Program-made: the position numbers and the translations under genes
Notes under the pieces: generated by a model
What the model was told of the DNA's origin: nothing
The model's input: the letters and a program-made list of their open reading frames with translations, nothing else
Databases searched by the model: none
Shown here: piece after piece, positions 2,607 to 14,418 of the stretch
Layout: each line of letters starts with the position of its first letter
Position numbering within the stretch: the first letter of the stretch is position 1
Assembly: GCA_018238625.1 (NCBI GenBank)
Contig: JABCSY010000101.1
Location: forward strand, 1 to 14,418
Direction: 5' to 3'
DNA length: 14,418 nucleotides
Source of the DNA: Promethearchaeota archaeon
GTDB lineage: Archaea; Asgardarchaeota; Lokiarchaeia; Sigyniarchaeales; SOKP01

Positions 2607-2954
2607 ATGATTCAAAAAGTTAAAAGGTTAAAAGAGCAACATTTAAAAGATTTAAAAATTGAATTAGAGCGCGTCAAATCTAAATTAATTGAAATGGGCG
2701 CGTTAAAAATAATACTTTTTGGATCTGCTGTAAGAGGAGAATTAGATATAACAAGTGATATTGATTTAATTGTTGTAATAGAATCAAAAAAAGAATTTAT
2801 AGAAAGATTAGCAGACTATTATAAAGAAATCCAACCCAAAGAAATCGATTTATTAATATATAACCCTAAAGAATTTAAGCGTATGAAAATTGAAAATTTA
2901 TTTATACAACATGTTTTAAAGAAAGGTGAAATCATATATGAGCGAAAAAAGTAA
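2607..2954 (+). CDS. Minimal nucleotidyltransferase (MNT), antitoxin-like partner of HEPN
   Basis: 115 aa with IILFGSAVRGE...SDIDLIVV (Pol-beta GS + DxD), a third Asp in IDLLIY and a C-terminal G-x-x-IYE. Confidence 0.9.
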   Translation: MIQKVKRLKEQHLKDLKIELERVKSKLIEMGALKIILFGSAVRGELDITSDIDLIVVIESKKEFIERLADYYKEIQPKEIDLLIYNPKEFKRMKIENLFIQHVLKKGEIIYERKK

Positions 2955-3369
2955 ATATACTAAGGAAGCAAGGAGATGGTTTGAACAAGCATGTGAAGAT
3001 TTAATAAGTACTAGAATATTGTATAATAATCAAAGGTATTATTTAGTCTGTTTTATGTCTCAACAGGTCGCCGAGAAAGCTTTAAAGGCTGTAATTTACT
3101 ATAATAAAGAAGCTTTAGTTTTAGGCCATTCTGTTAAGAAACTATCTGATTGGGCTGGAAAATTTGATACAAAATTTATAAATTTAGGAAAAAATATTTC
3201 AATTTTAGACTCTTATTATATTCCTGCTAGATATCCAAATGGATTACCAGAGGGTATCCCAGCTGAGATATTTAATGAAAGAGCGGCTAAAAGTGCTCTT
3301 GATTTAGCAGAAGAAACAATTCAAATAGTAAGAGATTATCTACATTTTAAAGAACCAATAAAAAGATAA
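2938..3369 (+). CDS. HEPN domain protein
   Basis: Motifs W...A.EDL, CFMSQQVAEKALKA, GHS and YIPARYP are typical of MNT-associated HEPN. The ATG at 2938 overlaps the MNT end by 17 nt and is preferred over the GTG at 2926. Confidence 0.88.
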   Translation: MSEKSKYTKEARRWFEQACEDLISTRILYNNQRYYLVCFMSQQVAEKALKAVIYYNKEALVLGHSVKKLSDWAGKFDTKFINLGKNISILDSYYIPARYPNGLPEGIPAEIFNERAAKSALDLAEETIQIVRDYLHFKEPIKR

Positions 3370-3411: not shown

Positions 3412-5913
3412 TTAAATTTTATGAGATTCTCGAGCGATTATTTCGTCTTGTAATTCTTTCCCTATAGCATTGAAGTAAGCGTTATAACCTGTAATACGAA
3501 CTAATAGATTAGGGTACTTCTCTGGATGTTCTTGAGCGTCTTTAAGCATTTCTACGTCGAGCATGTTTATTTGCAAGCATGTACCACCATTTTCAACATA
3601 TCCTCTCAAGTAAGATTTAAACTTATCTTTGTGTTCTGGGTCCTTAAGTATCGAAGGATTGAATGTAATCGTATGACTACTTCCGTTAGGTAGGTAATTA
3701 ACATAACCTCCGTCTTCCGTTTTTCCTCCCAAAACCACGCCTACAGAATTTGTTACGGCGGTTGGCCCTTTAAGATCTGCTCCATTTGAAGGACAGATTG
3801 CGTTAGATAAAAATGTCGCCTTATTTCGGCCGTTTGGAGTAGCAACTGTAAAACCAGCGTCAGCACCTGCCCAATAATTCCATGATAACATACCAGGCCG
3901 GAACTGAAAATCTGTAGGCGTCTTATATTTCCACGTTTCGTCAGACCATACTTTCATAACCTTCCTAGCTAGCTCGTCAGCATCGTCAACATCATTTCCG
4001 TATTTAGGTGCTCTATTTTTTAACATCGTTTGGATAACAGCAAATTCTTCCCCCTCGAAATCGTTAATGAGAGCATCTTTAATCTGGGTAATGGTGTATT
4101 TTTTGTCATCGTAAACAAATTTCTTAATTGCCAGTAAGGAATCGACAGTTGTTGCGAAGCCGACACCCTCAACGGTTATAAATCTTAATTCAGGGCCGCC
4201 TCTTCTAATATCCAATCCTTTATTAATACAACCACGAACTATAGTAGATAAATACGGAGTGGGCATGAATTCTGCTCTAAGTTCTTCGGTTATATTATAT
4301 ATATCTACTGTGTATTTAATGAGATATTTTACTTGTTTTTTCCACGCATTCCAAAATTCATCCCAAGTTTTGAAACTTTCAGAACTTCCAGTTTTAGGCC
4401 CAATTTGTTCGCCCTTCTTGGTAGCGACATCATTTCCTGGCATATTCTTTCCATTCCAAAGAGTTAATTCAATGCTTTTCGTTAAATTTGGATTGCAATT
4501 TACGGTGCCTGAACGATCGTTTCCTTGCATAGTATTTTCTAAGCACCCAACACAAGCGTAATCCCAAGCATCTTCGAGCGAAATTCCTTCCGTTATCATT
4601 CCAGCGATGCTTCTTTCATCGAAATTAATAAGGAAGGGAGCACCCTGCGAGCGAGATACTATATCAACTATTATATTTAATAACTTCTCGGGTGAATTTC
4701 GATGCAGCCGAATATTAGGTTTTGGTTCTAAAATAGGGGACCATTCGTCAACGATTTCTAAGATAGTATATGTTAATTCGTTGGTTAAATCTTCCCCGTT
4801 AGGTCCGCACCCACTAAGCGTCATCAATTGTCCGAACGCCGAAGTAATACCTTGCTTTCCTACCATTATTTGTGCGTCATACGCGGTATTACAATGAAAC
4901 CAGAAACTTCCTAAAATGTCTTTCGCAAACTCCTTTGAGATAGTTTTCTCATCAATAACATCTTTTTTATACAAATGCCAAAGATGCAGATCTGTCCGAC
5001 CAAAAGAGGTACCTGGCCCAGGATATGATTCTTCCGCCATGATTAACATATGGGTTAACCAAATTGCCTGAACCCCCTGCCAAAAGGTTTCTGCGGGTTC
5101 CCAAGGGACTATTTCGAGATTTTTTGCCATTTGTTCAAGCTCTTCTGCCCTCTCTGACGATGACGCAGTTTCTTTAAGCCTCCTACACTCTTCAGCATAT
5201 TTTTTCGCTAATTTCTTTGGAATTTTTGCTGCTTTCATCATTGCCCGTAATTCTTGGCCTTTAGGACCCTTTTTCTCCCGATCGTTTAATTGGCTATATT
5301 GTGCTTCTGCTTTTTCGTATATGTACTTGAAGCCCTTTTTAATTATTGTTTCGTGATCTGGAATGAGATGGCCTGATGTAGCGCCTGCATTTCCAAATCC
5401 AGACTTATGATATTTGTAAAATTTATGTCGAATACTCAAATTCTCTTTCCAGTATCGTTTTGTTTCTTTTTTAGTTAAACAATCACTTAATTGTGTGTTA
5501 AATCTACCACCCGCAATTAGATCATTTTCAGAAATAATTTCTTGAGGGATGTAATTAAGCATAACCTCTTCAAAAAAATCTATTCTGCGTTCGGGTAAAG
5601 ATAAAGCCCAGAAATTCTCCGTTAATTTTACAGGAATTGCCATGGATCTTAAAGACCCCTCAAAAACTCCCTTTCCCTTATTACCTATATAAAAATGCAC
5701 CTCTGGGGCGATATAATATTCAGTTTCGCTCCATATTATATCCCAATCAGTTCCAGTAGTAAACGGCATGTATTGATTGTTCCATTCACGTTTAACTCCC
5801 TTAAAGTAATAATCTCTTAGCCATTTCGACCTTGGAGATAAATCATGAGGTTCAGCTATATGATACTTTGGTACTTCTTTCCTAACTTCGGATTTATTAT
5901 CTAAATCACTCAT
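3412..5913 (-). CDS. Glycyl radical enzyme (PFL superfamily, PflD/PFL2-like; substrate unknown)
   Basis: 833 aa. C-terminal glycyl-radical loop LLVRITGYNAYF, Cys loop YACVGCLE (not the CC pair of true PFL), plus SFGRxD, PKYGND, ATPNGR and LQINM. Confidence 0.93.
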   Translation of the reverse strand: MSDLDNKSEVRKEVPKYHIAEPHDLSPRSKWLRDYYFKGVKREWNNQYMPFTTGTDWDIIWSETEYYIAPEVHFYIGNKGKGVFEGSLRSMAIPVKLTENFWALSLPERRIDFFEEVMLNYIPQEIISENDLIAGGRFNTQLSDCLTKKETKRYWKENLSIRHKFYKYHKSGFGNAGATSGHLIPDHETIIKKGFKYIYEKAEAQYSQLNDREKKGPKGQELRAMMKAAKIPKKLAKKYAEECRRLKETASSSERAEELEQMAKNLEIVPWEPAETFWQGVQAIWLTHMLIMAEESYPGPGTSFGRTDLHLWHLYKKDVIDEKTISKEFAKDILGSFWFHCNTAYDAQIMVGKQGITSAFGQLMTLSGCGPNGEDLTNELTYTILEIVDEWSPILEPKPNIRLHRNSPEKLLNIIVDIVSRSQGAPFLINFDERSIAGMITEGISLEDAWDYACVGCLENTMQGNDRSGTVNCNPNLTKSIELTLWNGKNMPGNDVATKKGEQIGPKTGSSESFKTWDEFWNAWKKQVKYLIKYTVDIYNITEELRAEFMPTPYLSTIVRGCINKGLDIRRGGPELRFITVEGVGFATTVDSLLAIKKFVYDDKKYTITQIKDALINDFEGEEFAVIQTMLKNRAPKYGNDVDDADELARKVMKVWSDETWKYKTPTDFQFRPGMLSWNYWAGADAGFTVATPNGRNKATFLSNAICPSNGADLKGPTAVTNSVGVVLGGKTEDGGYVNYLPNGSSHTITFNPSILKDPEHKDKFKSYLRGYVENGGTCLQINMLDVEMLKDAQEHPEKYPNLLVRITGYNAYFNAIGKELQDEIIARESHKI

Positions 5914-6050: not shown

Positions 6051-6795
6051 TTATTTTCTTCCAAAAATAATTCCTAGATTTTTCATTTCCACACGCGCGA
6101 AGCTAGGCAATTTTATCTCTTTTAAAGTATTAAAATAATTCACTTCCTCAACCCCAAATTCCCGAATCTTTTCTTTTAATGTATGTATTTATTTTTTCAT
6201 TTTTTATCATATCTTGAATAGAAAAAACGCCTCCTTTTTTTAAAACGCGCAATGCTTCTTTAAATAATATACTTTTATCTCCTACAAATAATATTTCATG
6301 GAATACAATATTGCTTACAATTGCATCAAACTCACCATCGTTAAAAGGTAGATGCAAGGCACTTGCTTTTTGAAATTTAGTACGATCCATAACACCCTCA
6401 ATTTTAGCATTTTTTTCACATGTTTTAAGAGAATTTTTCCATAGTTTGCTCCAAATATCAATCCCCCATGCTTCTGTGTTAGGATTAATTTTTGCTAACT
6501 GTATTGCAAGATAACCATTTCCTGTTCCAATATCAAGTACTTTTCCTTTACCATTCCATGGAAGATTTTGCAAAACGATATTTCGTAATTTATTTTACAT
6601 TTCTCCATTATTATGAGCAAATATACGATATAAATAGGTTAGAAATAATAACCCTACAATACAAAGACAATCAAGAATCCATAATATAATTTTAAAAATT
6701 AATAACATTGGAATAATTGATAGTGTACTTATAAATAAAGCGTATATAATCTTTTTAGGTACCCAGTTTCCATAACAAATTGAATTATTAGTCAT
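6051..6795 (-). pseudogene. Disrupted membrane-anchored class I SAM-dependent methyltransferase
   Basis: ORFs 6595-6795 and 6148-6573 are in the same frame and read ...NNGEM*NKLRNIVLQNLPWNGKGKVLDIGTGNG across an in-frame TAA at 6595-6597. A frameshift near 6185-6205 hides a plausible C-terminus in another frame (...LKEKIREFGVEEVNYFNTLKEIKLPSFARVEMKNLGIIFGRK*, stop at 6051-6053). Confidence 0.82.
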
Positions 6796-7146
6796 TTCTT
6801 ATATTCTTTTTTAATTAAATTTGTTAATTATGATTGAGAGATTTATTTTTGAAAACTTTTAATTAAATAGAACACATTTTTATTTTTAAATTTTAGTTAT
6901 ACCTAATTGAAAAAAAAAGAATTTTACTTATACATCATATTTAGAATTTTTTTAGAAATCCTTATTATTATTTAAAGAGATTTAAGCTTTTATTTCCTTT
7001 AATATTGAAAAAATGAAGGAACAACAAAAACAATATTTATCTTTTAATAAATCTCTATATTGCTATAATTATGAAAATTCTATGATGACTTTAACACTTA
7101 CTTAAATAAAATAGAAGAGAAATAAAAAAAAATTATTATGTAATAA

Positions 7147-8532
7147 TTATCTTGCTTTCAATTGGTTTTTTAAATTTTCTAATTGTTCTCCATGCAAATC
7201 ATAAGATCTCATAAAAAAGAACGCAATTAACAGCGCTATTGATGGAAAAACACACATAAGCAGTCTCAAACCGATAACTACATCTATTCCAGGATTAGGT
7301 ACATATCCACCAGACCAACTCGTTTCTGAAAATACAATTGCAACAGTTGAAATAAAAAATATTATTGAAAATCTATGAATAAAAGCGTTAGTGCCATAAA
7401 AACTAGCAGATCTTTTAACTCCGGTCTTTAATTCGTCTTGGTCAATTATGTTTCCCATTAAAATATCAAAATAGAACATAATTCCCGAGATTCCGAATCC
7501 AACTAATGCTGAGGTAACCATTCCTAAAATTATACTAATAGAATCTGTTGAAAGAAATAAGTACGGAATCAAAGTAAATATCATTACAATCATAGTAATC
7601 ATGAAACCTTTTCGCATTCCATATTTAAAACCCATCCATTTATGTATTGGCATAAAAGCTGCAGCAAAAATAAACGTTAACATTAATGATATCCCTACAT
7701 ACCAAAAAGCTGAAATTCCAAAAACGTAAGCGGAATATAAGGGAAACATCGCAGGTAACATATTTAAAACGTACCAAGTGCACATGTTGGCAAAAACTAA
7801 CTTAAGAAAAGTCTTGTTTTTAAAAGACATTTTTAGAGAATCAAATAATTTTGGTCGCTTTTCAAATTGCTCTCGTAATTCTTCTTTTTCCTTAATACCG
7901 AATAAAATAAATAAAAGACCAATTACTCCTACTATAATTGCAACGTAAATTCCTGCAGTAATATAGTACGATTGAATCTGAGCTATTTCTATTGGGTCAG
8001 GTGGAAAAATAGTTGGAACTGTTTTAGCAATGAATAAGGTTGGCACAAGATTTGTAAATAAGATAGCAAAAATTGTCAAAATTCTTAATACCATATTAAC
8101 GCTAGCTCTTTGCTTATCGTTTACCCACATCTCAGGAAATAAACTTTTTACGTTTACATCAAAGAGGGTATATACTAGTTCAAAAGTTATTATAATAAGA
8201 AGGAAGTAAGCAAATTCAATTCCAGCAGGGACCGTAAATAAAAAAATCATCATAAGACATAAAGGTACAAAAGAAATAGCGATAAAGAACCTTCGTTTCC
8301 CTAACTTACCATACTTTTTTCGGTCAGATAAAGCGCCTAATATCGGATCGTTAAAAGCATTCCATATAGCCCATATAATATAAGCTATCCACATCAACCA
8401 AAGATCAAGACCTATAACTGCGAAATAATACGTGAAAACTAATAGCTGGAAGAATTGATAAGTCATTTGATCTGGAAATCCGTTTAATCCGAAGAAAAAT
8501 TTTTCTCGAAAACTAATCTTATCTTCACTCAT
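7147..8532 (-). CDS. MFS transporter, GPH (glycoside-pentoside-hexuronide:cation symporter, MelB-like) family
   Basis: 461 aa with about 12 hydrophobic segments. WNAFNDPILGALSDR...GKRR and IIDQDELKTGVKRSASFYG match GPH signatures. Confidence 0.88.
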   Translation of the reverse strand: MSEDKISFREKFFFGLNGFPDQMTYQFFQLLVFTYYFAVIGLDLWLMWIAYIIWAIWNAFNDPILGALSDRKKYGKLGKRRFFIAISFVPLCLMMIFLFTVPAGIEFAYFLLIIITFELVYTLFDVNVKSLFPEMWVNDKQRASVNMVLRILTIFAILFTNLVPTLFIAKTVPTIFPPDPIEIAQIQSYYITAGIYVAIIVGVIGLLFILFGIKEKEELREQFEKRPKLFDSLKMSFKNKTFLKLVFANMCTWYVLNMLPAMFPLYSAYVFGISAFWYVGISLMLTFIFAAAFMPIHKWMGFKYGMRKGFMITMIVMIFTLIPYLFLSTDSISIILGMVTSALVGFGISGIMFYFDILMGNIIDQDELKTGVKRSASFYGTNAFIHRFSIIFFISTVAIVFSETSWSGGYVPNPGIDVVIGLRLLMCVFPSIALLIAFFFMRSYDLHGEQLENLKNQLKAR

Positions 8533-8765: not shown

Positions 8766-9710
8766 ATGGAATTAAAAGAGTACAAATGTGAAGTTTTGAT
8801 AATAGGTGCCGGTCCAGCGGGACTAAGTGCGGGAGTTTATTGTGGTAGAGCAAACAGAAGCACTATTATATTAGACGGAAAAGAGCCTTCTGCTTTAGAG
8901 AGAACGAAGGAGATACAAAATTGGTTGGGAGAGGCAGCTATTGGAGGATTAGAACTTCTAAAAAAGTTTAAGAAACACGCTGAAAGCTTCGATAATGTCG
9001 ATATTATAAAAGGAGACGTCATCGCATTAATGTTAGGTATGGGCATGAATATGGTCTCAACAAGAAATGCAAATATTACTGCTGATGTTGTATTAATCGC
9101 TACTGGCACGGGAGTAAGGAAGGAAGTAATTAAAGGAGAAAGCGGATTAACTGGTTTTGGCGTGTCTTATTGTGCTTTGTGTGATGGTCCATTATTTAAA
9201 GAGAGAACCGTCTATTTATACGGTTCGGACGAAGAAGTTTTGGAAGACGCGCTTGCTCTTGATCAAATGGGTTGTATAACACATGTCATTACTAACGTAG
9301 GATTTAACGATTTACCTGAATTAGCTTCTGAAGTTAAAGAAAAAGGAATCGAAATTATTGACAATATGGAAATCGTTGAAGCTATCTCGGATTCTGATGG
9401 TCTGATCCAGAAAATTTTATGCAAAACAACAAAAACAGAGCAAGAAGACCAAGAAATACAAGAATACGAATTAGCTTGTCTATTCATCTTATCTCACATA
9501 CCTTCTAATTCGATATTCAAAAAAGCGGGAGTAGAATTGGACGAAAATGGTAATGTCGCTGCTGACGAGAATCAACAAACAAACATTCAAGGAGTATATG
9601 CGGCCGGAGATGTAACTGGAGGTTTATTTCAAGTAGTTTTTGCGGCGGCAGAAGGCGCGCGTGCAGGGATAAACGCTTGTAAATACCTACGAAAAACAAA
9701 GAAAGAATAA
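8766..9710 (+). CDS. trxB: Thioredoxin reductase-like FAD-dependent disulfide oxidoreductase
   Basis: 314 aa with IIGAGPAG (FAD), IATG, GVSYCALCDG (redox CxxC) and TNIQGVYAAGD. The NADPH-binding motifs are degenerate. Confidence 0.85.
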   Translation: MELKEYKCEVLIIGAGPAGLSAGVYCGRANRSTIILDGKEPSALERTKEIQNWLGEAAIGGLELLKKFKKHAESFDNVDIIKGDVIALMLGMGMNMVSTRNANITADVVLIATGTGVRKEVIKGESGLTGFGVSYCALCDGPLFKERTVYLYGSDEEVLEDALALDQMGCITHVITNVGFNDLPELASEVKEKGIEIIDNMEIVEAISDSDGLIQKILCKTTKTEQEDQEIQEYELACLFILSHIPSNSIFKKAGVELDENGNVAADENQQTNIQGVYAAGDVTGGLFQVVFAAAEGARAGINACKYLRKTKKE

Positions 9711-9717
9711 AATTTCA
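9585..9717 (+). repeat. Direct repeat copy 1: last 41 codons, stop and 7 nt of the trxB-like gene (putative attL)
   Basis: Hand alignment gives 127/133 identity to 12924-13056. Positions 9634-9710 give 69/77 identity to 10437-10513. Confidence 0.95.
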
Positions 9718-9782
9718 TAATAGCAGTGCATCCGAAGTATTATGTACTAGATTTAATTTAAATAAGTAGCAGAAAAAACTAA

Positions 9783-9800
9783 TAAAGCAAAATTTAAATA
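9783..9800 (+). promoter_or_regulatory. Putative archaeal BRE/TATA promoter of the first DUF6516-like operon
   Basis: Purine-rich AAAGCAAAA followed by TTTAAATA (9793-9800), 30 nt upstream of the ATG at 9831. The AT-rich background lowers specificity. Confidence 0.4.
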
Positions 9801-9830
9801 AGAAAAAGTTCGTTAAGATAATGAAGAAAA

Positions 9831-10061
9831 ATGAAAGTATATATAGACAGAGATGTAGCTGAGGATTTAGTTAACTACAAATTAAGAAATATTCAGGAAA
9901 ATATAAATAAAATATTAAAAAGATGGGATGAAACCGAAGCTTCAATATTTTTAGAAAAAGCAAAGAATGGAACTTATTCCGAAGCAGAAAACGATGCTAT
10001 TGATCTCAAACAATTATTACTTGACGAAAAACAATTAAATGAGTTAATTAATTCATTTTAG
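9831..10061 (+). CDS. Small helical protein, putative antitoxin of the downstream DUF6516/TumE-like protein
   Basis: 76 aa. Aligns without gaps to 13162-13404 (about 28/75 identities by hand; shared KL..I..IL..W, FL..AK.GT.SEAE.DAI). Same position in both operons. Confidence 0.7.
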   Translation: MKVYIDRDVAEDLVNYKLRNIQENINKILKRWDETEASIFLEKAKNGTYSEAENDAIDLKQLLLDEKQLNELINSF

Positions 10062-10073
10062 AGGCTTCAATTT

Positions 10074-10439
10074 TTGAGAGGATTCGATAAATTAATAACT
10101 GCTCGTAAAATTCTCCTTAATGTTTTATTTTCAGAAATAAAAAGTGAGTTTATTGATGATGAACGCCCATTTTTAAAAATTACTTTTTTTAAAGCATTAG
10201 TTCTTTATATTCGTTATAATGATTATGGTGAATACTCTTATCAATTAATTTACTCACAAGAACCTCTTGATAGAATTCGCTATGATAATTTTGATGATAC
10301 GTGGAATGTTAAATCTAAACCTCATCATTTTCATCCAAGATATGAGAGAATTGCTAATCAAAGTCCGATGAATGGCGATCCTGAACACGATATTCCAATT
10401 CTCTTAAAAGAATTTATCGAGAAAGAATTTAAAAAATAG
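10074..10439 (+). CDS. DUF6516/TumE-like putative toxin
   Basis: 121 aa, TTG start after GAGG. Contains YSYQ, RYDN and PHHFH, the pattern I recall for DUF6516. Its TAG stop is the first three bases of repeat copy 2. Confidence 0.72.
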   Translation: MRGFDKLITARKILLNVLFSEIKSEFIDDERPFLKITFFKALVLYIRYNDYGEYSYQLIYSQEPLDRIRYDNFDDTWNVKSKPHHFHPRYERIANQSPMNGDPEHDIPILLKEFIEKEFKK

Positions 10440-10513
10440 TTTTTATGGGGGCAGAAGGCGTGCGCGCAGGGATAAACGCTTGTAAATACCTACAGAAAAC
10501 AAAGAAAGAATAG
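10437..10513 (+). repeat. Direct repeat copy 2: shorter, degenerate trxB 3' end
   Basis: tagtttttatgggggcagaaggcgtgcgcgcagggataaacgcttgtaaatacctacagaaaacaaagaaagaatag. Eight substitutions and no indels versus 9634-9710. Confidence 0.92.
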
Positions 10514-10555
10514 ATAAATTCTATTTTTTAACCTTCATTCAATACGAAGATAACC

Positions 10556-10957
10556 CTAAAAATTAATTTTTTTAACTTTAAGATTATCTATATCATTAAA
10601 GTGAGTCTCTGTAGTATAGATAAATATTTTCCTAGTTAGAGCTTCAGCAATTATAATTGCATCTACCGTTGAGAGAAATTTATATTTACATTTAAGTTCT
10701 CCAGCCAATATTGATATATTCTCGCCAACGGGAACAAAATCAATGATGTCTCCTTTCCGTAGATTTTCCATTATAATTTGAGCGTTAATTTTTCCTTTTT
10801 CTCTGCATAAATGATTGAAAAACTCAATATAATTCAATTCCGATGATATGAAACTGTATTTATTTTTCTTTTTAGTTTTGATCTCTTTAAGTATTTCTTC
10901 ATGATTACTTAGATACAAACTAATTACGCCTGTATCAATAAAAATTGTATTTTTCAT
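10556..10957 (-). CDS. vapC: PIN-domain ribonuclease (VapC toxin)
   Basis: 133 aa with IFIDTGV, SELNYIE, LSTVDAIIIA and YTTETHF (the last acidic residue is E rather than the usual D). Confidence 0.9.
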   Translation of the reverse strand: MKNTIFIDTGVISLYLSNHEEILKEIKTKKKNKYSFISSELNYIEFFNHLCREKGKINAQIIMENLRKGDIIDFVPVGENISILAGELKCKYKFLSTVDAIIIAEALTRKIFIYTTETHFNDIDNLKVKKINF

Positions 10958-11220
10958 TAAAACTGCCTTTGGTATAGTTTTTCTTTCTCATTTTCTATCT
11001 CTTGTTTGCGTTCTTTAGAGAGTTCTTCAATGATTTTGATGCTTGTTTCCATATCTAATATTGATTGTAGTTTATTTTCTGAGAGGTATGGTAATATTTT
11101 TATTCCTTCTAAAGGGTGATCAATAATTATCACTTTATCTCCATCTTTCCATCCGTATTTTTTCCGCATTTCTGATGGAATTGTGATTCTTCCATGATTG
11201 CTAATATTAACTATTGTCAT
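10957..11220 (-). CDS. vapB: AbrB/MazE/SpoVT-family antitoxin (VapB)
   Basis: 87 aa with ISNHGRITIPSEMRKKYGWKDGDKV. Its stop overlaps the vapC start by 1 nt. Confidence 0.9.
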   Translation of the reverse strand: MTIVNISNHGRITIPSEMRKKYGWKDGDKVIIIDHPLEGIKILPYLSENKLQSILDMETSIKIIEELSKERKQEIENEKEKLYQRQF

Positions 11221-11259
11221 GTGTTACACATAGAAAGTAAAGAATTTAAGTTTGCTTAT

Positions 11260-11460
11260 AATTTTTTGGGTTTGCTTAGCATAATTCTTATTTTTTGGAC
11301 CACTTTTGGAAACAGAAATGTTATAATTATCTTGCTGTTGGTAACAATTCTCAGATCGGGTTGTGACACTTCAGCAAAAAAATCGTATGTTTTGCTTGTG
11401 GTACCGTTTTACCCATCCAAGACAAAAGCTTGTCCTAACTGTGGAATAAAAATAGAATAA
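11260..11460 (+). pseudogene. Remnant of a membrane protein with a C-terminal zinc ribbon
   Basis: Hydrophobic segments and C-terminal CPNCG lie in the listed ORF frame. The first knuckle (KIVCFACGTVL, 11379-11411) lies in a different frame. There is no credible start outside vapB, so the 5' boundary is approximate. Confidence 0.55.
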
Positions 11461-11558
11461 AGGAAATATAAATTAATAGTAATCAGATTATAATTAAAGA
11501 AAAGAAAAAAAAAAGCTGGATGATTATTTTAATTAACTTGATTAAATTTAGATTTTGA

Positions 11559-12569
11559 CTACGACAATATTTCAATTTTCCTCTTCCTTTTCAAAGTAAA
11601 ACTAATAGACAATCCAGAAAAGATTATAAATCCAAATAATAAAAACATTGGATAACCGGGAATTAATATTTGTAAATTTATAGTCTCTATATTAATAGAG
11701 AAAGGTTCGCTAAATCCATAGACTGCAGGATCGTAATAATCAGAAATCTTTATTAGATAATTCGTTCCACTAAGGTTCAAATAGGAAGGAATTGTCCAGT
11801 TGTATATCCCATCGTTAGGTTGATAGGAGGAAATGTTTGTTATTGGCGTTGATCCTTCAAAAAGTTCAATTCTCACATGTTCAATCTGTCCTTGAGAAAG
11901 CCATGTTATTGAAAAGGTATCTGAGTCGGACCATTCCGATAATGAATCAGGTTTGATCACTGTGAAAGTAGCATCCTCAATATAGGTCCATATGATCTGA
12001 GGGGCTTGCTCTTGCATCAAATAATCTTCACTTGAGTAAAAAGGTGCACTATTTTCAACAAAATTATCCATTTCCATGTAAACACATACTGAAAGGTTAG
12101 CTATTCCATCTACAACGCTGGAAATATCTAGCTTATAGACTCCGGGAGCATCGTTGTTATAGATGTAATATCCCAAGACTTGACCTTTTGAAGGAGCATT
12201 GTTCCAAGTGATGGTTTGTTCATCCCAACTCTCTTCAATCAAACATATAGTCAAATTAAGCTCGGGACCGGGAAAATCTTTTCCCCAAAAATGTAAAGAA
12301 AGTTCTACTTTTGAATAATTTGTAGGTTTATTAGTGAAGTTGAAATACAAATATGATTCAAGATAATTACCTACAATGTTATAACCCGCCTCGAGGTTAT
12401 CTTGCATGGAACCAATAGGGATGTCTGGGGTCCCTGAGCTAGTAATTGCGTCCTGTTCTGCGATACCTGAAACTGTAATCTCTCTATTAACCGCGTGAAT
12501 CGAGGGTATAAACATTAGCGGCGTCAATAAAAATATAGTACATAGTAAAAGTATTGATCTAGTTTTCAT
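11559..12569 (-). CDS. Secreted, C-terminally anchored surface protein: DNRLRE/CBM96-like domain, Kre9/Ser-Thr-rich-GPI-anchored-family Ig-like domain and Loki-CTERM-like tail
   Basis: N-terminal signal peptide. ESYLYFNF and SWDEQTITWNNAP (DNRLRE-like). VIKP...FSITW...VRIEL...NDGIYNWTIP...YLIKI...SEPFSI (Kre9-N-like). IPGY + TM helix + KRKRK. Confidence 0.75.
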   Translation of the reverse strand: MKTRSILLLCTIFLLTPLMFIPSIHAVNREITVSGIAEQDAITSSGTPDIPIGSMQDNLEAGYNIVGNYLESYLYFNFTNKPTNYSKVELSLHFWGKDFPGPELNLTICLIEESWDEQTITWNNAPSKGQVLGYYIYNNDAPGVYKLDISSVVDGIANLSVCVYMEMDNFVENSAPFYSSEDYLMQEQAPQIIWTYIEDATFTVIKPDSLSEWSDSDTFSITWLSQGQIEHVRIELFEGSTPITNISSYQPNDGIYNWTIPSYLNLSGTNYLIKISDYYDPAVYGFSEPFSINIETINLQILIPGYPMFLLFGFIIFSGLSISFTLKRKRKIEILS

Positions 12570-12923
12570 TATTATCTTTACCTTTTTTTTAATTATATTT
12601 CGCTAAATTTAATGGTTTTGAGATATATAAATTTAAAGTATTTAAAATAATCCTTTTGATTCATTTAAATTAATATGGTGAATTTGTATCAGAACAAATT
12701 TAAATAAAGAAGTATTGAGTATGTTCTGGAACTAAAACTTCTAAATGATATATTTGTAAGACCAGTTTTAAAATTTATTACAATATTTTTAAATAAATTG
12801 ATAAAAAATATCAGTAATCAATACCTATTGCAAAATCAGTAATTAAAAGAAACTTCAAGTCTAAGTACTCATTGTTCCTAAGGATGAATATACATTGTAT
12901 AAACAATTTGTGGTAATATGGGT

Positions 12924-13056
12924 ATTCAAGGAGTATATGCGGCTGGAGACGTAACTGAAGGTCTATTTCAAGTAGTTTTTGCTGCGGCAGAAGGTGCGCG
13001 TGCAGGGATAAACGCTTGTAAATACCTACGAAAAACAAAGAAAGAATAAAATTTCA
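12924..13056 (+). repeat. Direct repeat copy 3: displaced trxB 3' end (putative att junction)
   Basis: 133 bp, six substitutions versus 9585-9717, no indels. The last 61 bp are identical. Confidence 0.95.
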
Positions 13057-13161
13057 CCCATTTGTTATCTATATTAAATTTATTGTAATTCTATTAAGGA
13101 ATAATTTGAAAAAGCATTAGATATTTATAGGAAAAATTACACATTAAATGTGGAGATAATA

Positions 13162-13404
13162 ATGGCACGTGTATCGGTTGATGAGGAACTTTTAATGAGT
13201 TTACTTGATTTTAAATTAAACCATCTAAAAGAAGAGATAGATCGAATATTAAGTAAGTGGAATTATATGTCTTCTACTGAATTTTTAAAACACGCTAAAG
13301 ATGGAACACTCTCAGAAGCAGAAATGGATGCTATTGAAATGAAAAATCTCAATGACGAACGTGAACGATTGTTAGGAGAAAAAACGAGCTTTATTGTGGA
13401 ATAA
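13162..13404 (+). CDS. Small helical protein, putative antitoxin (paralog of 9831-10061)
   Basis: The ATG at 13162 is preceded by GGAG and is preferred over the GTG at 13150. TAATG coupling to the downstream gene. Confidence 0.72.
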   Translation: MARVSVDEELLMSLLDFKLNHLKEEIDRILSKWNYMSSTEFLKHAKDGTLSEAEMDAIEMKNLNDERERLLGEKTSFIVE

Positions 13405-13775
13405 TGTCTGCAATTTCTAAATTATTAGAAGCAAAAGCAATTTTCGAGCAACTTTTTGATAAGGAGATTAATAATTTGACTTTAAATTTAGATTCTAGGA
13501 AGCTCCATATCGTATTATCCGATGGTATTGAAATTTATATCATTTATAATAATCATGGTGAATACGGTTATAATATCCTATTTTCCAAGCTTGATCTAGA
13601 TAGATGTAGATTTGATAACTATGATGATCATTGGGATGTTGATTCTCGTCCGCACCATTTCCATCCAAGGAAAAAAACTGAAGTAGAATCAAGTAAAATG
13701 ACTGGAAATCCTAAAGATGACATTCCATATCTCAATAAAATCCTTAAGTCAGGTAAACTACATAAAACAGAATAA
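13404..13775 (+). CDS. DUF6516/TumE-like putative toxin (paralog of 10074-10439)
   Basis: 123 aa. YNNHGEYGY, LDRCRFDNYDD.W.V.SRPHHFHPR and S.M.G.P..DIP.L are shared with the first copy. Confidence 0.72.
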   Translation: MSAISKLLEAKAIFEQLFDKEINNLTLNLDSRKLHIVLSDGIEIYIIYNNHGEYGYNILFSKLDLDRCRFDNYDDHWDVDSRPHHFHPRKKTEVESSKMTGNPKDDIPYLNKILKSGKLHKTE

Positions 13776-13883
13776 TAATATTCCCGTAATAGTTAAACGT
13801 TAAAGAAAACAGATATATCTGATTTTATAAGAAATAATTGAAGTTATTTTTTTGGGACCGTTTTTAAAACTTTGGTAATACAG

Positions 13884-13925
13884 AGATATCATACAGATAT
13901 CATACCATATTATGTAATATCACGA
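13884..13925 (+). repeat. Short phased tandem repeats upstream of the recombinase
   Basis: AGATATCATAC x2 (13884-13905), then degenerate ATATTATGT and ATATCACGA. ATAT cores start at 13886, 13897, 13907 and 13917. Confidence 0.6.
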
Positions 13926-13941
13926 TGCTATTTCTTCTATT

Positions 13942-14418
13942 ATGGTTAATTATAAGGTTTCAGATTTTATCGAAGATTTTTTGATTTCAAAAGAAGTAGA
14001 AGAAGGGTGTGCGCCATCTACCATTAAAGCGTATCGGTACGATCTTGAAAAGTTTATTAACCTTGTAGAAGACGTTGACCTTGAATCGCCATTTTTAAGA
14101 CAGAAGATAAGGCTCTTTTTAAAAAAACTGAAAGATTTAGATTATTCAAAGAAGGGTATAAGTCGTAAAATCGCTTCGTTAAGGTCGTTTTTTAAGTTTT
14201 TAACTTTAAATGAATTTATTACTAAAAATCCTATGGCAACAATTAAATCCCCAAAGATCAAACTAGAAGAGAGTCTCCCTAAATTTCTGGATGTTTCTGA
14301 CATAGAAGTTATTTTTAACAAGCTGAAAGATCGAAGGCTATTTAATTCAAGAAAGAGCTTAAGATATTACTTAACTGTGAGGTTGTTATATTCTACTATG
14401 GCTCGTGTAAGCGAATTG
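13942..14418 (+). CDS. Tyrosine recombinase, XerC/XerD/XerA-like (N-terminal 159 codons, truncated by window end)
   Basis: Not in the ORF track; translated by hand: MVNYKVSDFIEDFLISKEVEEGCAPSTIKAYRYDLEKF...ISRKIASLRSFFKFL...KNPMATIKSPK...LPKFL...RLLYSTMARVSEL. This is a SAM-like core-binding domain plus box I with the catalytic Arg. Confidence 0.93.
   Translation, partial: MVNYKVSDFIEDFLISKEVEEGCAPSTIKAYRYDLEKFINLVEDVDLESPFLRQKIRLFLKKLKDLDYSKKGISRKIASLRSFFKFLTLNEFITKNPMATIKSPKIKLEESLPKFLDVSDIEVIFNKLKDRRLFNSRKSLRYYLTVRLLYSTMARVSEL

Follow-up and report, generated by a model that had tools for sequence, protein, structure and literature searches.

A hypervariable islet of toxin-antitoxin modules between trxB and xerA in a Promethearchaeota archaeon

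The trxB-xerA interval and its gene content

The stretch of DNA analysed here, referred to as the window, is contig JABCSY010000101.1 of assembly GCA_018238625.1 from a Promethearchaeota archaeon. Its 14,418 nucleotides (nt) represent the entire contig C83 of the source assembly G000, a bin of 4.29 Mb in 201 contigs; throughout the text, G numbers denote genomes, L numbers loci and X numbers sequencing runs. The subject of this study is an islet which is enclosed by a gene for a thioredoxin-reductase-like flavoprotein on its left and by xerA, the gene of a tyrosine recombinase, on its right. Between these flanks the window harbours a TumE-type gene pair (module A), a VapBC pair, a gene for a surface protein and a second TumE-type pair (module C), interspersed with displaced copies of the 3' end of the left flanking gene (Table 1). 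The protein encoded by this gene reaches 213 bits on the TIGR01292 model (TRX_reduct), which is below the cut-off of 343 bits; the gene is therefore named trxB-like and, for brevity, trxB in the following. Across the genus, its orthologs (62-97% identity at the amino acid (aa) level) adjoin xerA.

Table 1. Features of the trxB-xerA islet and its flanks (positions in the window; ORF, open reading frame; IR, inverted repeat)
Feature	Position	Strand	Evidence or remarks
trxB-like gene, thioredoxin-reductase-like flavoprotein, 314 aa	8766..9710	+	Pfam Pyr_redox_2, 91 bits; conserved left flank of the islet
trxB copy 1	9585..9717	+	intact trxB-like 3' end plus 7 nt beyond the stop codon
Module A: small ORF 9831-10061 (76 aa, presumed TumA-type antitoxin) and TumE toxin 10074-10439 (121 aa)	9831..10439	+	PF20126 TumE
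trxB copy 2	10434..10538	+	79-nt trxB 3' remnant (10434-10512) plus ~26 nt of native trxB-downstream sequence
VapC (PIN, 133 aa) 10556-10957 and VapB (AbrB/MazE-type, 87 aa) 10957-11220	10556..11220	-	PF01850, 48.3 bits; PF04014, 35.4 bits
Doubtful 88-codon ORF, block B	11194..11460		
~20-nt direct repeat, left copy	11288..11308	+	local alignment with 13844-13865
Surface-protein gene, 336 aa	11559..12569	-	PF24517, 47.3 bits (CBM96); PF10342, 37.4 bits (Kre9/KNH)
Remnant of xerA-upstream (pre-IR) sequence	12874..12918	+	right end of the middle unit, abuts copy 3; 39/44 nt identical to a segment of L061
trxB copy 3	12924..13056	+	133-nt trxB 3' remnant
Module C: small ORF 13150-13404 (84 aa) and TumE-like ORF 13404-13775 (123 aa)	13150..13775	+	paralogue of module A, 39-41% aa identity
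~20-nt direct repeat, right copy	13844..13865	+	local alignment
Inverted-repeat site	13884..13926	+	extra 11-nt left-arm copy 13884-13894 plus 32-nt core 13895-13926
xerA, N-terminal 159 codons, runs off the contig	13942..14418	+	PF02899, 49.1 bits

A repeat search, MAFFT alignment and a BLAST search in which the 133-nt repeat was compared with the whole assembly show that the trxB 3' end is indeed present in three direct copies. Compared to copy 1, copy 2 shows 90% identity over 79 nt (E 3.5e-24), its stop codon being changed from TAA to TAG, and copy 3 shows 95% identity over 133 nt (E 2e-56), with all six mismatches located within its first ~67 nt; its former reading frame contains one Gly-to-Glu change. 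The same BLAST search detects no fourth copy in the 4.29-Mb assembly; the next best match has an E value of 0.08, so that the three copies stand far above chance. Copies 1 and 2 bracket a unit of 803 nt. Neither a tRNA nor an Rfam family is present in the window. An initial annotation, made from the sequence of the window alone, had described the three copies together with the gene content of the blocks A to C between and behind them, and both are confirmed by repeat search, BLAST and domain search. It had further proposed that small cassettes are captured at these repeats, acting as att sites, by the adjacent recombinase, and had predicted another copy downstream of the recombinase gene. Such a copy is absent from the 51.8-kb contig C48, on which xerA continues, and from the whole assembly (BLAST). 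Its placement of the source organism among the Asgard archaea is correct.

The toxin of module A scores 34.8 bits on PF20126 (cut-off 23.4 bits). That of module C stays slightly under the cut-off with 21.6 bits; its relation to module A is apparent from a tblastn match with an E value of 1e-23. TumE-TumA is described as an experimentally validated toxin-antitoxin family which targets translation (PMC10584680). The small ORFs next to both TumE genes, which have no Pfam match, are presumably the antitoxins. A small partner ORF is kept in nine of the 12 other loci with TumE homologues, the remaining three being cut at or near contig ends. TumE-like pairs are also present elsewhere in the genomes of seven of the 41 other members of the genus, among them those on G016:C24, C51 and C76, G008:C416, C445 and C514, G004:C72, C132 and C141, G044:C24, G053:C8 and G054:C28. 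The pairs of G016:C24 and G004:C141 show 78-80% DNA identity to module A within the coding region only (9828-10415 at 80%), which indicates that the modules possess no conserved ends of their own. The vapC and vapB genes overlap by one base (10957), and the pair, a PIN-domain toxin with an AbrB/MazE-type partner, belongs to the VapBC family. The surface protein consists of a signal-like N-terminus, CBM96 and Kre9/KNH Ig-like domains and a C-terminal membrane anchor.

The recombinase gene is split over two contigs. It continues on the reverse strand of C48, where positions 51551-51797 overlap window positions 14172-14418 over 247 nt with three mismatches, one of which exchanges Lys for Asn; strain heterogeneity probably broke the assembly inside xerA. 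On the NF040815 model (XerA_Arch, an equivalog; cut-off 220 bits) the N-terminal part obtains 72.9 bits and the C48 part 203.3 bits, while the intact 308-aa orthologs, which are 96-98% identical to the fragment in the window, obtain 239.9 bits (L061) and 239.1 bits (G016). On the integron-integrase model TIGR02249 (cut-off 265 bits) the same intact orthologs reach 99.3-99.4 bits in two separate stretches and the C48 part reaches 92.9 bits. Downstream of xerA, C48 carries genes for orc1/cdc6 (TIGR02928, 207 bits), DUF362, DUF1326 and an aminotransferase. The order trxB-xerA-orc1/cdc6-DUF362 is found in 18 of the 21 genus loci examined, including the genome whose site is empty (see below), and the gap between trxB and xerA measures 85-195 nt in 15 of these 18. 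This conserved synteny, taken together with the score on the XerA equivalog, identifies the recombinase as the core XerA, which stands at its ancestral location and is not a component of an island. The part assigned to it by the initial annotation, i.e. serving the capture of cassettes, is thus not supported by the model scores (239-240 bits for XerA, 99 bits for the integron integrase) nor by its genomic context. Only two PF00589 matches exist in the source genome. The second one is a divergent tyrosine recombinase (C89:16040-16534; PF00589, 70 bits) which scores 88 bits on NF040815, below the cut-off. Within C89 15981-17407 (L010 5981-7407) this 307-aa protein adjoins a ribbon-helix-helix (RHH)/DUF6290 protein and may be the remnant of a mobile element.

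Haplotypes, unit borders and population contigs

Relatives whose XerA is at least 95% identical at the aa level were regarded as close haplotypes. The eight close haplotypes have eight distinct contents. In G016, whose trxB is 95% identical to that of the window, the site is empty, i.e. the trxB stop codon is followed by 97 nt and then by xerA. G008 contains only module A (94-97% aa identity to the pair of the window) and is collinear with window positions 8820-10444 and then 13876-14418; L064 contains only module C and is collinear with 12923-14418 at 82.7% identity. In G041 module C is followed by VapBC. The interval of G042 comprises an opposite-strand ORF, module C, VapBC, a 74-aa ORF, a PIN-like pair and the remnant of a GNAT gene, the last items having been read by eye and scanned in part. 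VapBC, which is 92-98% identical (aa) to that of the window, accordingly occupies another array position in G041 and G042. L061 and L062 contain VapB without VapC, the antitoxin of module C with its toxin cut to 31 codons, and the 74-aa ORF with a GNAT acetyltransferase gene. The interval of L063 shows a trxB of divergent sequence (76%) together with a paralogue of trxB, and 228 nt of the resident trxB persist as a remnant; the window contributes the order module A, VapBC, surface-protein gene, module C.

With regard to G042, we would like to note that the opposite-strand ORF has a length of ~0.9 kb and is located directly after trxB, and that the PIN-like gene has a small partner. Further small modules occur at the same spot in L061 (4877-5680), L173 (1-1080) and L194 (4529-5521). 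In L063 (1770-1900 and 3143-3379) and L126 (5420-5602) a trxB paralogue is situated between trxB and xerA, and behind this paralogue the trxB 3' end persists as a remnant.

Module C is the first module after trxB in L064, G041 and G042. Where a module directly succeeds trxB, as module A does in G008 and module C in L064, no second trxB copy is present. Across the haplotypes the trxB remnants measure 9, 79, 133, ~183 (L126) and 228 nt (L063), and an extra trxB 3' fragment is observed in only one of the 36 species loci which have a full trxB upstream of the inverted repeat preceding xerA. These single-module loci and the widely differing remnant lengths are at odds with the proposed function of the repeats as att sites. 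The expectation of the initial annotation that the trxB-to-xerA interval would vary in relatives holds for the number and the content of the modules, the empty site included; it fails with respect to variation at the repeats.

More distant species carry other insertions in the same gap: a gene for a 207-aa membrane protein without a Pfam match in G019 (L043 14335-14958) and a methyltransferase gene after trxB in G002 (L057 1-345). Both indicate that the spot is an insertion hot spot across the genus. Outside the genus, five genomes of the same order were searched for xerA. The gene was found in G027, G030, G032 and G038, whereas the query used gave no match in G033, the completeness of which is 63%. 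In none of the four does xerA adjoin trxB or cdc6, and visual inspection does not reveal the inverted repeat there; the arrangement is therefore lineage-specific.

The borders of the units retain chromosomal flank sequence at both ends. Window positions 10434-10538 are 86.7% identical to the trxB end and the sequence downstream of it in the empty-site genome G016, and the 24 nt following the trxB part of copy 2 match the native trxB-downstream sequence at 22 positions (one of 2000 shuffles as good). Hence copy 2 is a former chromosomal trxB end. Its left edge consists of the 8-mer TAGTTTTT, which terminates module A and recurs, at the corresponding position, in trxB at 9634 and at 12973. At the right end of the middle unit, 39 of 44 nt in 12874-12918 agree with the L061 segment directly upstream of the xerA inverted repeat (none of 2000 shuffles as good), from which it follows that this unit once abutted xerA. 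In G041 the order is module C with its own pre-IR sequence, the last 9 nt of trxB, a complete spacer of the empty type extending to the first bases of the inverted repeat, and VapBC. Since the stacked units carry xerA-upstream remnants on their right, they are whole intergenic haplotypes and not discrete cassettes with a site of their own; each unit is a slice of some strain's entire trxB-to-xerA interval, cut at differing points. Microhomology is present at the junctions, with 8 nt at the border of module A and copy 2 and with the ~20-nt repeat at 11288 and 13844. The two copies of the latter flank a 2.56-kb segment which extends over the surface-protein gene and the pre-IR remnant to copy 3 and module C and which is missing from G041 and from run X7.

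The notion of small discrete cassettes likewise finds no support in the folding of the borders. DNA folds of five border regions yield z-scores of -0.99 to +2.40 against shuffles and thus reveal no attC-like hairpins, this comparison being based on folding and not on a dedicated attC model. In addition, among the 25 longest of 43 pairs of local inverted repeats none is located at a module border.

Integrase islands are classically recognised by direct repeats which restore a gene's 3' end, and several tandem units of this kind are known from such islands. The array could accordingly have arisen from tandem mini-islands, i.e. non-autonomous elements whose attP contains the trxB 3' end and which were integrated by a tyrosine integrase acting in trans, for instance that encoded on C89 or one lost since; this origin corresponds to the model of the initial annotation. 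Copies 1 and 2 indeed bracket a unit whose right edge is the 8-mer shared with trxB, module C of G041 and G042 is enclosed by the trxB end on one side and by 9 nt which repeat this end on the other, and the divergent recombinase on C89 beside the RHH protein could be seen as a source of the enzyme. We nevertheless consider this origin very unlikely. The borders of module C vary from genome to genome (133 nt of trxB on the left and the 20-nt repeat on the right in G000, a full trxB and the 9-nt remnant in G041, a full trxB and no repeat in L064), and module A lacks a right-hand copy in G008. The units end in xerA-upstream sequence, which would not be expected of elements with their own attP; neither an integrase gene nor a remnant of one is present in blocks A to C; no trxB copy exists beyond the recombinase; and the TumE pairs located elsewhere share with module A its coding region and no flanks. 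Compared to tandem integrase islands, the array thus differs by the absence of an element-borne integrase, by repeats of 9 to 228 nt, by single insertions without a repeat and by chromosomal sequence on the right. A classical integrase island was rejected for want of an element integrase, a consistent att site and a distal copy, the downstream genes being syntenic core genes. A narrow literature search on archaeal integration sites and Asgard mobile elements retrieved no description of trxB as an att site or of this locus.

Given that the window derives from a metagenome, the array might also be a chimera in which the assembler strung alternative strain haplotypes together. The contamination of the bin (7.6%), the end of the contig within xerA, where two variants differ at 3 of 247 nt, and the unequal depth of trxB and the blocks (25 versus 9 in X1, 55 versus 30 in X4) would fit such an error. 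Part of the window is contained in 20 of the 24 runs listed, which stem from eight studies of marine sediment and cold-seep metagenomes. The succession of module A end, copy 2 and vapC is bridged by Logan contigs in four of four runs from four studies, without any difference in X1 and X4, and that of block B end and copy 3 in two of four. The internal junctions of the array are therefore not an assembly artefact, in agreement with the initial annotation, which had named such an artefact as a way in which it could fail. Moreover, the sequences joined there share at most 8-20 nt, which is too short for erroneous joining of k-mers, and the divergence of 10% between copies 1 and 2 shows that copy 2 is not a collapsed duplicate. 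The Logan contigs, built at k=31, break in the identical 66-nt tail common to copies 1 and 3 and thus do not assign either copy to module A or to module C. Taken together, a chimera is extremely unlikely.

The same contigs document alternative joints within the populations. VapB is joined to the inverted repeat by 11282->13895 and by 11290->13848, the latter being represented in X7 by two contigs with a depth of 41. One contig of X5 lacks the surface-protein gene (joint 11467->12575), and a further joint connects 9920 to 11448. None of the alternative joints is located at the trxB repeats. Positions 12711-12901 in X7 and 13093-13283 in X5 are without cover; these gaps, and the lack of listed joints between the trxB copies, provide no evidence either way.

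Upstream of the islet the window varies among relatives as well. Between the gene for a glycyl-radical enzyme (3412-5913) and trxB it contains a methyltransferase gene (6148-6573), a 66-aa ORF and the gene of a major facilitator superfamily (MFS) transporter (7147-8532), together spanning 6148-8532. This stretch is also present in G042 and L063 and is absent in G016, L061 and G041, where the gene for the glycyl-radical enzyme directly precedes trxB. A further pair of the toxin-antitoxin type, composed of an MNT-type nucleotidyltransferase (115 aa) and a HEPN protein (147 aa) whose ends overlap, is situated at 2607-3369, 5 kb upstream of the islet.

The inverted repeat upstream of xerA

Alignment of 23 loci shows the core of the inverted repeat to consist of 8-nt palindromic arms, 10 nt apart, followed by a conserved tail and preceded by a direct copy of the arm. 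A position weight matrix (PWM) of 32 columns derived for this core finds a single site in the source genome, with 43.2 bits compared to 14.0 bits for the next best match. In a scan using one genome per species the repeat was recovered with at least 30 bits in 52 loci, and in all 51 which provide enough sequence the start of xerA lies within 60 nt of it. This observation on Promethearchaeota covers the window as well as L013, L041-L064 and L113-L175. The other 13 genome loci from the scan (5-26 bits) and all 15 viral contigs (13.7-18.6 bits) are without xerA; we regard these low-scoring loci as chance matches and see no evidence for the repeat on viruses. The copy number of the 11-nt left arm varies, with two copies in G000 (13884-13905), three in G008 (L013) and an 11-nt insertion at 13875 in one contig of X5.

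Two functions appear equally possible for this element. For dif, Cortez et al. 2010 describe an 11-6-11 layout (PMC2958812), and the arms of the element can be read in this way, which would make it a candidate dif site. A T/A-rich hexamer within it, ~31 nt before the xerA ATG, suggests an overlap with a presumed xerA promoter, in which case it would be a candidate autoregulatory operator. According to the cited part of the same paper, dif is not located beside xerA in Thermococcales or in the archaea studied up to then (PMC2958812).

In bacteria, a precedent for close linkage is offered by streptococci, whose xerS adjoins difSL. Candidates for a second dif-like site inside the array, i.e. look-alikes following copies 1 and 3, failed the PWM scan, which yields nothing above 2 bits in the array. 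GC and AT skew as well as coding-strand bias on G009:C134, G017:C7 and G016:C56 follow the local gene orientation and give no origin or terminus signal at the locus; they are uninformative in this regard.

In L063 the inverted repeat occurs twice, the second copy (31 bits) being succeeded by a decayed 5' start of xerA. This is a duplication of the flank, i.e. a scar on the other side of the islet. As the only PWM site in the window is that at 13895 and the second copy in L063 is accounted for by such a duplication, an integrative mobile element exploiting Xer (IMEX) was rejected. The locus shares with Xer/dif modules and IMEX that foreign DNA accumulates at a unique inverted repeat adjoining a single gene of the Xer type; it differs from them in that this repeat is no more than a candidate dif and in that no second dif-like site flanks the inserted DNA in the window.

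If the inverted repeat were a target of XerA, the enzyme might cut or stall DNA there, and one-ended insertions would accumulate beside its gene in a manner reminiscent of integrons and IMEX. Several observations would suit such an Xer-linked capture: the repeat is unique in the genome, it keeps its distance to xerA in every species locus with enough sequence, its two arms can be read as a dif-type 11-6-11 site, its left arm varies in copy number, all insertions of the genus lie between trxB and the repeat, and three independent breakpoints cluster at its left edge. On the other hand, IMEX have flanking dif-like sites, whereas no second site exceeds 2 bits in the array of the window. The breaks occur at the outer edge of the arm and not at the borders of arm and spacer, where tyrosine recombinases cut. 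The junction of module A and copy 2 as well as the 20-nt repeat are situated at a distance of 30-55 nt from the inverted repeat, to which the partner breakpoints in trxB (-9, -79 and -133) bear no resemblance. Furthermore, the repeat may simply be the promoter of xerA with its operator, as the hexamer suggests, dif does not lie beside xerA in Thermococcales as far as the cited part of PMC2958812 goes, and the GC skew is devoid of an origin or terminus signal at the locus. In view of these points we consider capture linked to XerA rather unlikely. Its more specific version, in which the repeat is a XerA site, namely a dif fused to xerA or an analogue of attI, and XerA directs one-ended insertion at the left arm, is in our estimation distinctly unlikely.

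Origin of the array and related systems

The explanation we favour, and which we deem moderately probable, is that alternative alleles of one hypervariable trxB-xerA islet have been stacked by homology-anchored illegitimate recombination. Strains differ in the small modules which they carry within the interval, most of them toxin-antitoxin pairs, and DNA containing another strain's version of the interval would recombine into the locus. One end of the incoming DNA would be anchored by homology in a conserved flank, either trxB or the inverted repeat together with xerA, and the other end would be joined illegitimately at a few bases of microhomology; entry of a circularised fragment via a single crossover would be an equivalent route. 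Each event would add a haplotype unit composed of a trxB 3' piece, the spacer downstream of it, the cargo and an xerA-upstream piece, with the truncated trxB 3' end remaining as a scar. The window contains three units: unit 1 consists of trxB with module A, unit 2 of the 79-nt scar with VapBC and the surface-protein gene, and unit 3, which extends to the inverted repeat and xerA, of the 133-nt scar with module C. Toxin-antitoxin modules would pile up because the loss of an antitoxin is penalised. The state of L061, where toxins are lost or truncated and antitoxins are kept, fits such an addiction. Kirchberger et al. 2017 propose the same route for arrays of orphan immunity genes and cite the displacement of Rhs C-termini (PMC5361080). 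As in sequential displacement, copies 2 and 3 precede VapBC and module C, respectively, module A occupies the primary position in G008, and module C does so in L064, G041 and G042.

Some observations weigh against stacking by illegitimate recombination or limit its reach. Three independent breakpoints, namely 12918|12924 in G000, the junction in G041 and G042 and the left border of VapBC in G041, are found at ~0 to +6 nt from the outer left-arm edge of the inverted repeat. Random illegitimate joints would be expected to scatter more widely, and the clustering hints that a protein directs one of the steps. No clear mosaic breakpoint is visible in trxB upon sliding comparison of six haplotypes at 86 variable sites. 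The k=31 contigs fit the array and a combination of trxB-C-xerA with a circle of 3339 nt alike, so that the linkage of modules A and C rests on the original assembly. The anatomy of the array, the variation among haplotypes and the flank remnants at both unit ends are directly visible in the sequences. The route of recombination is deduced from end products, no recombination event having been observed, and the sequence of events as well as the part played by addiction in keeping the modules are likewise inferred.

Stacking of alternative alleles has close counterparts in the effector-immunity arrays of the Vibrio cholerae type VI secretion system (T6SS) and in the orphan strings of Rhs and contact-dependent inhibition (CDI) loci. 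In these arrays, as described in PMC5361080, small modules accumulate downstream of a conserved gene, the orphan units follow a 3' piece of that gene which has been displaced, other strains have the same modules in the primary position, and homology-facilitated illegitimate recombination is the proposed route. In contrast to them, the conserved gene of the present locus is a housekeeping redox gene and not the constant region of the toxin itself, the cargo consists of intracellular TumE/TumA-like and VapBC pairs and not of secreted effectors with their immunity genes, the units retain remnants of the right-hand flank, and the host is an Asgard archaeon.

Integrons, which are reported to be enriched in Asgard genomes (Ghaly et al. 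2022, PMC9668308), provide another comparison. Here, too, small modules which are rich in toxin-antitoxin pairs and free of mobility genes abut the gene of a tyrosine recombinase with a unique adjoining site. With respect to orientation and to a possible attI, the array abuts this site and three breakpoints are located at its edge; two other junctions are 30-55 nt away. Unlike an integron, however, the locus encodes XerA (99 bits on the integrase model, which demands 265) and shows no attC-like hairpins, its modules lie on both strands, with VapBC and the surface-protein gene opposite to the others, and their borders differ between genomes. Besides, genomes which lack any module likewise possess XerA in this synteny. 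The failed integrase model, the lack of attC-like hairpins, the genes on both strands and the inconsistent borders led us to reject the integron. As a whole, the locus appears to resemble an orphan array formed by sequential displacement and the hot-spot islets of bacteria, in a lineage for which our narrow literature search retrieved no description of such loci.

The picture of an 'Asgard integron at trxB' is therefore unsupported. It is replaced by the documented growth and reshuffling of a toxin-antitoxin islet in an uncultured species of the Lokiarchaeon type. The locus may also serve as a warning that direct repeats of a gene 3' end beside a tyrosine recombinase are not by themselves proof of an integrase island. 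Finally, the inverted repeat in the promoter region of xerA constitutes a testable candidate for a XerA target site in Promethearchaeota. Were it dif, archaea would have their first example of a dif adjacent to xerA, and the susceptibility of this spot to recombination would be explained. If, in addition, XerA did direct insertion there, the trxB-xerA islet would represent an Xer-based platform for gene capture in Asgard archaea, a functional analogue of the integron which derives from the housekeeping dimer-resolution system and dispenses with attC.

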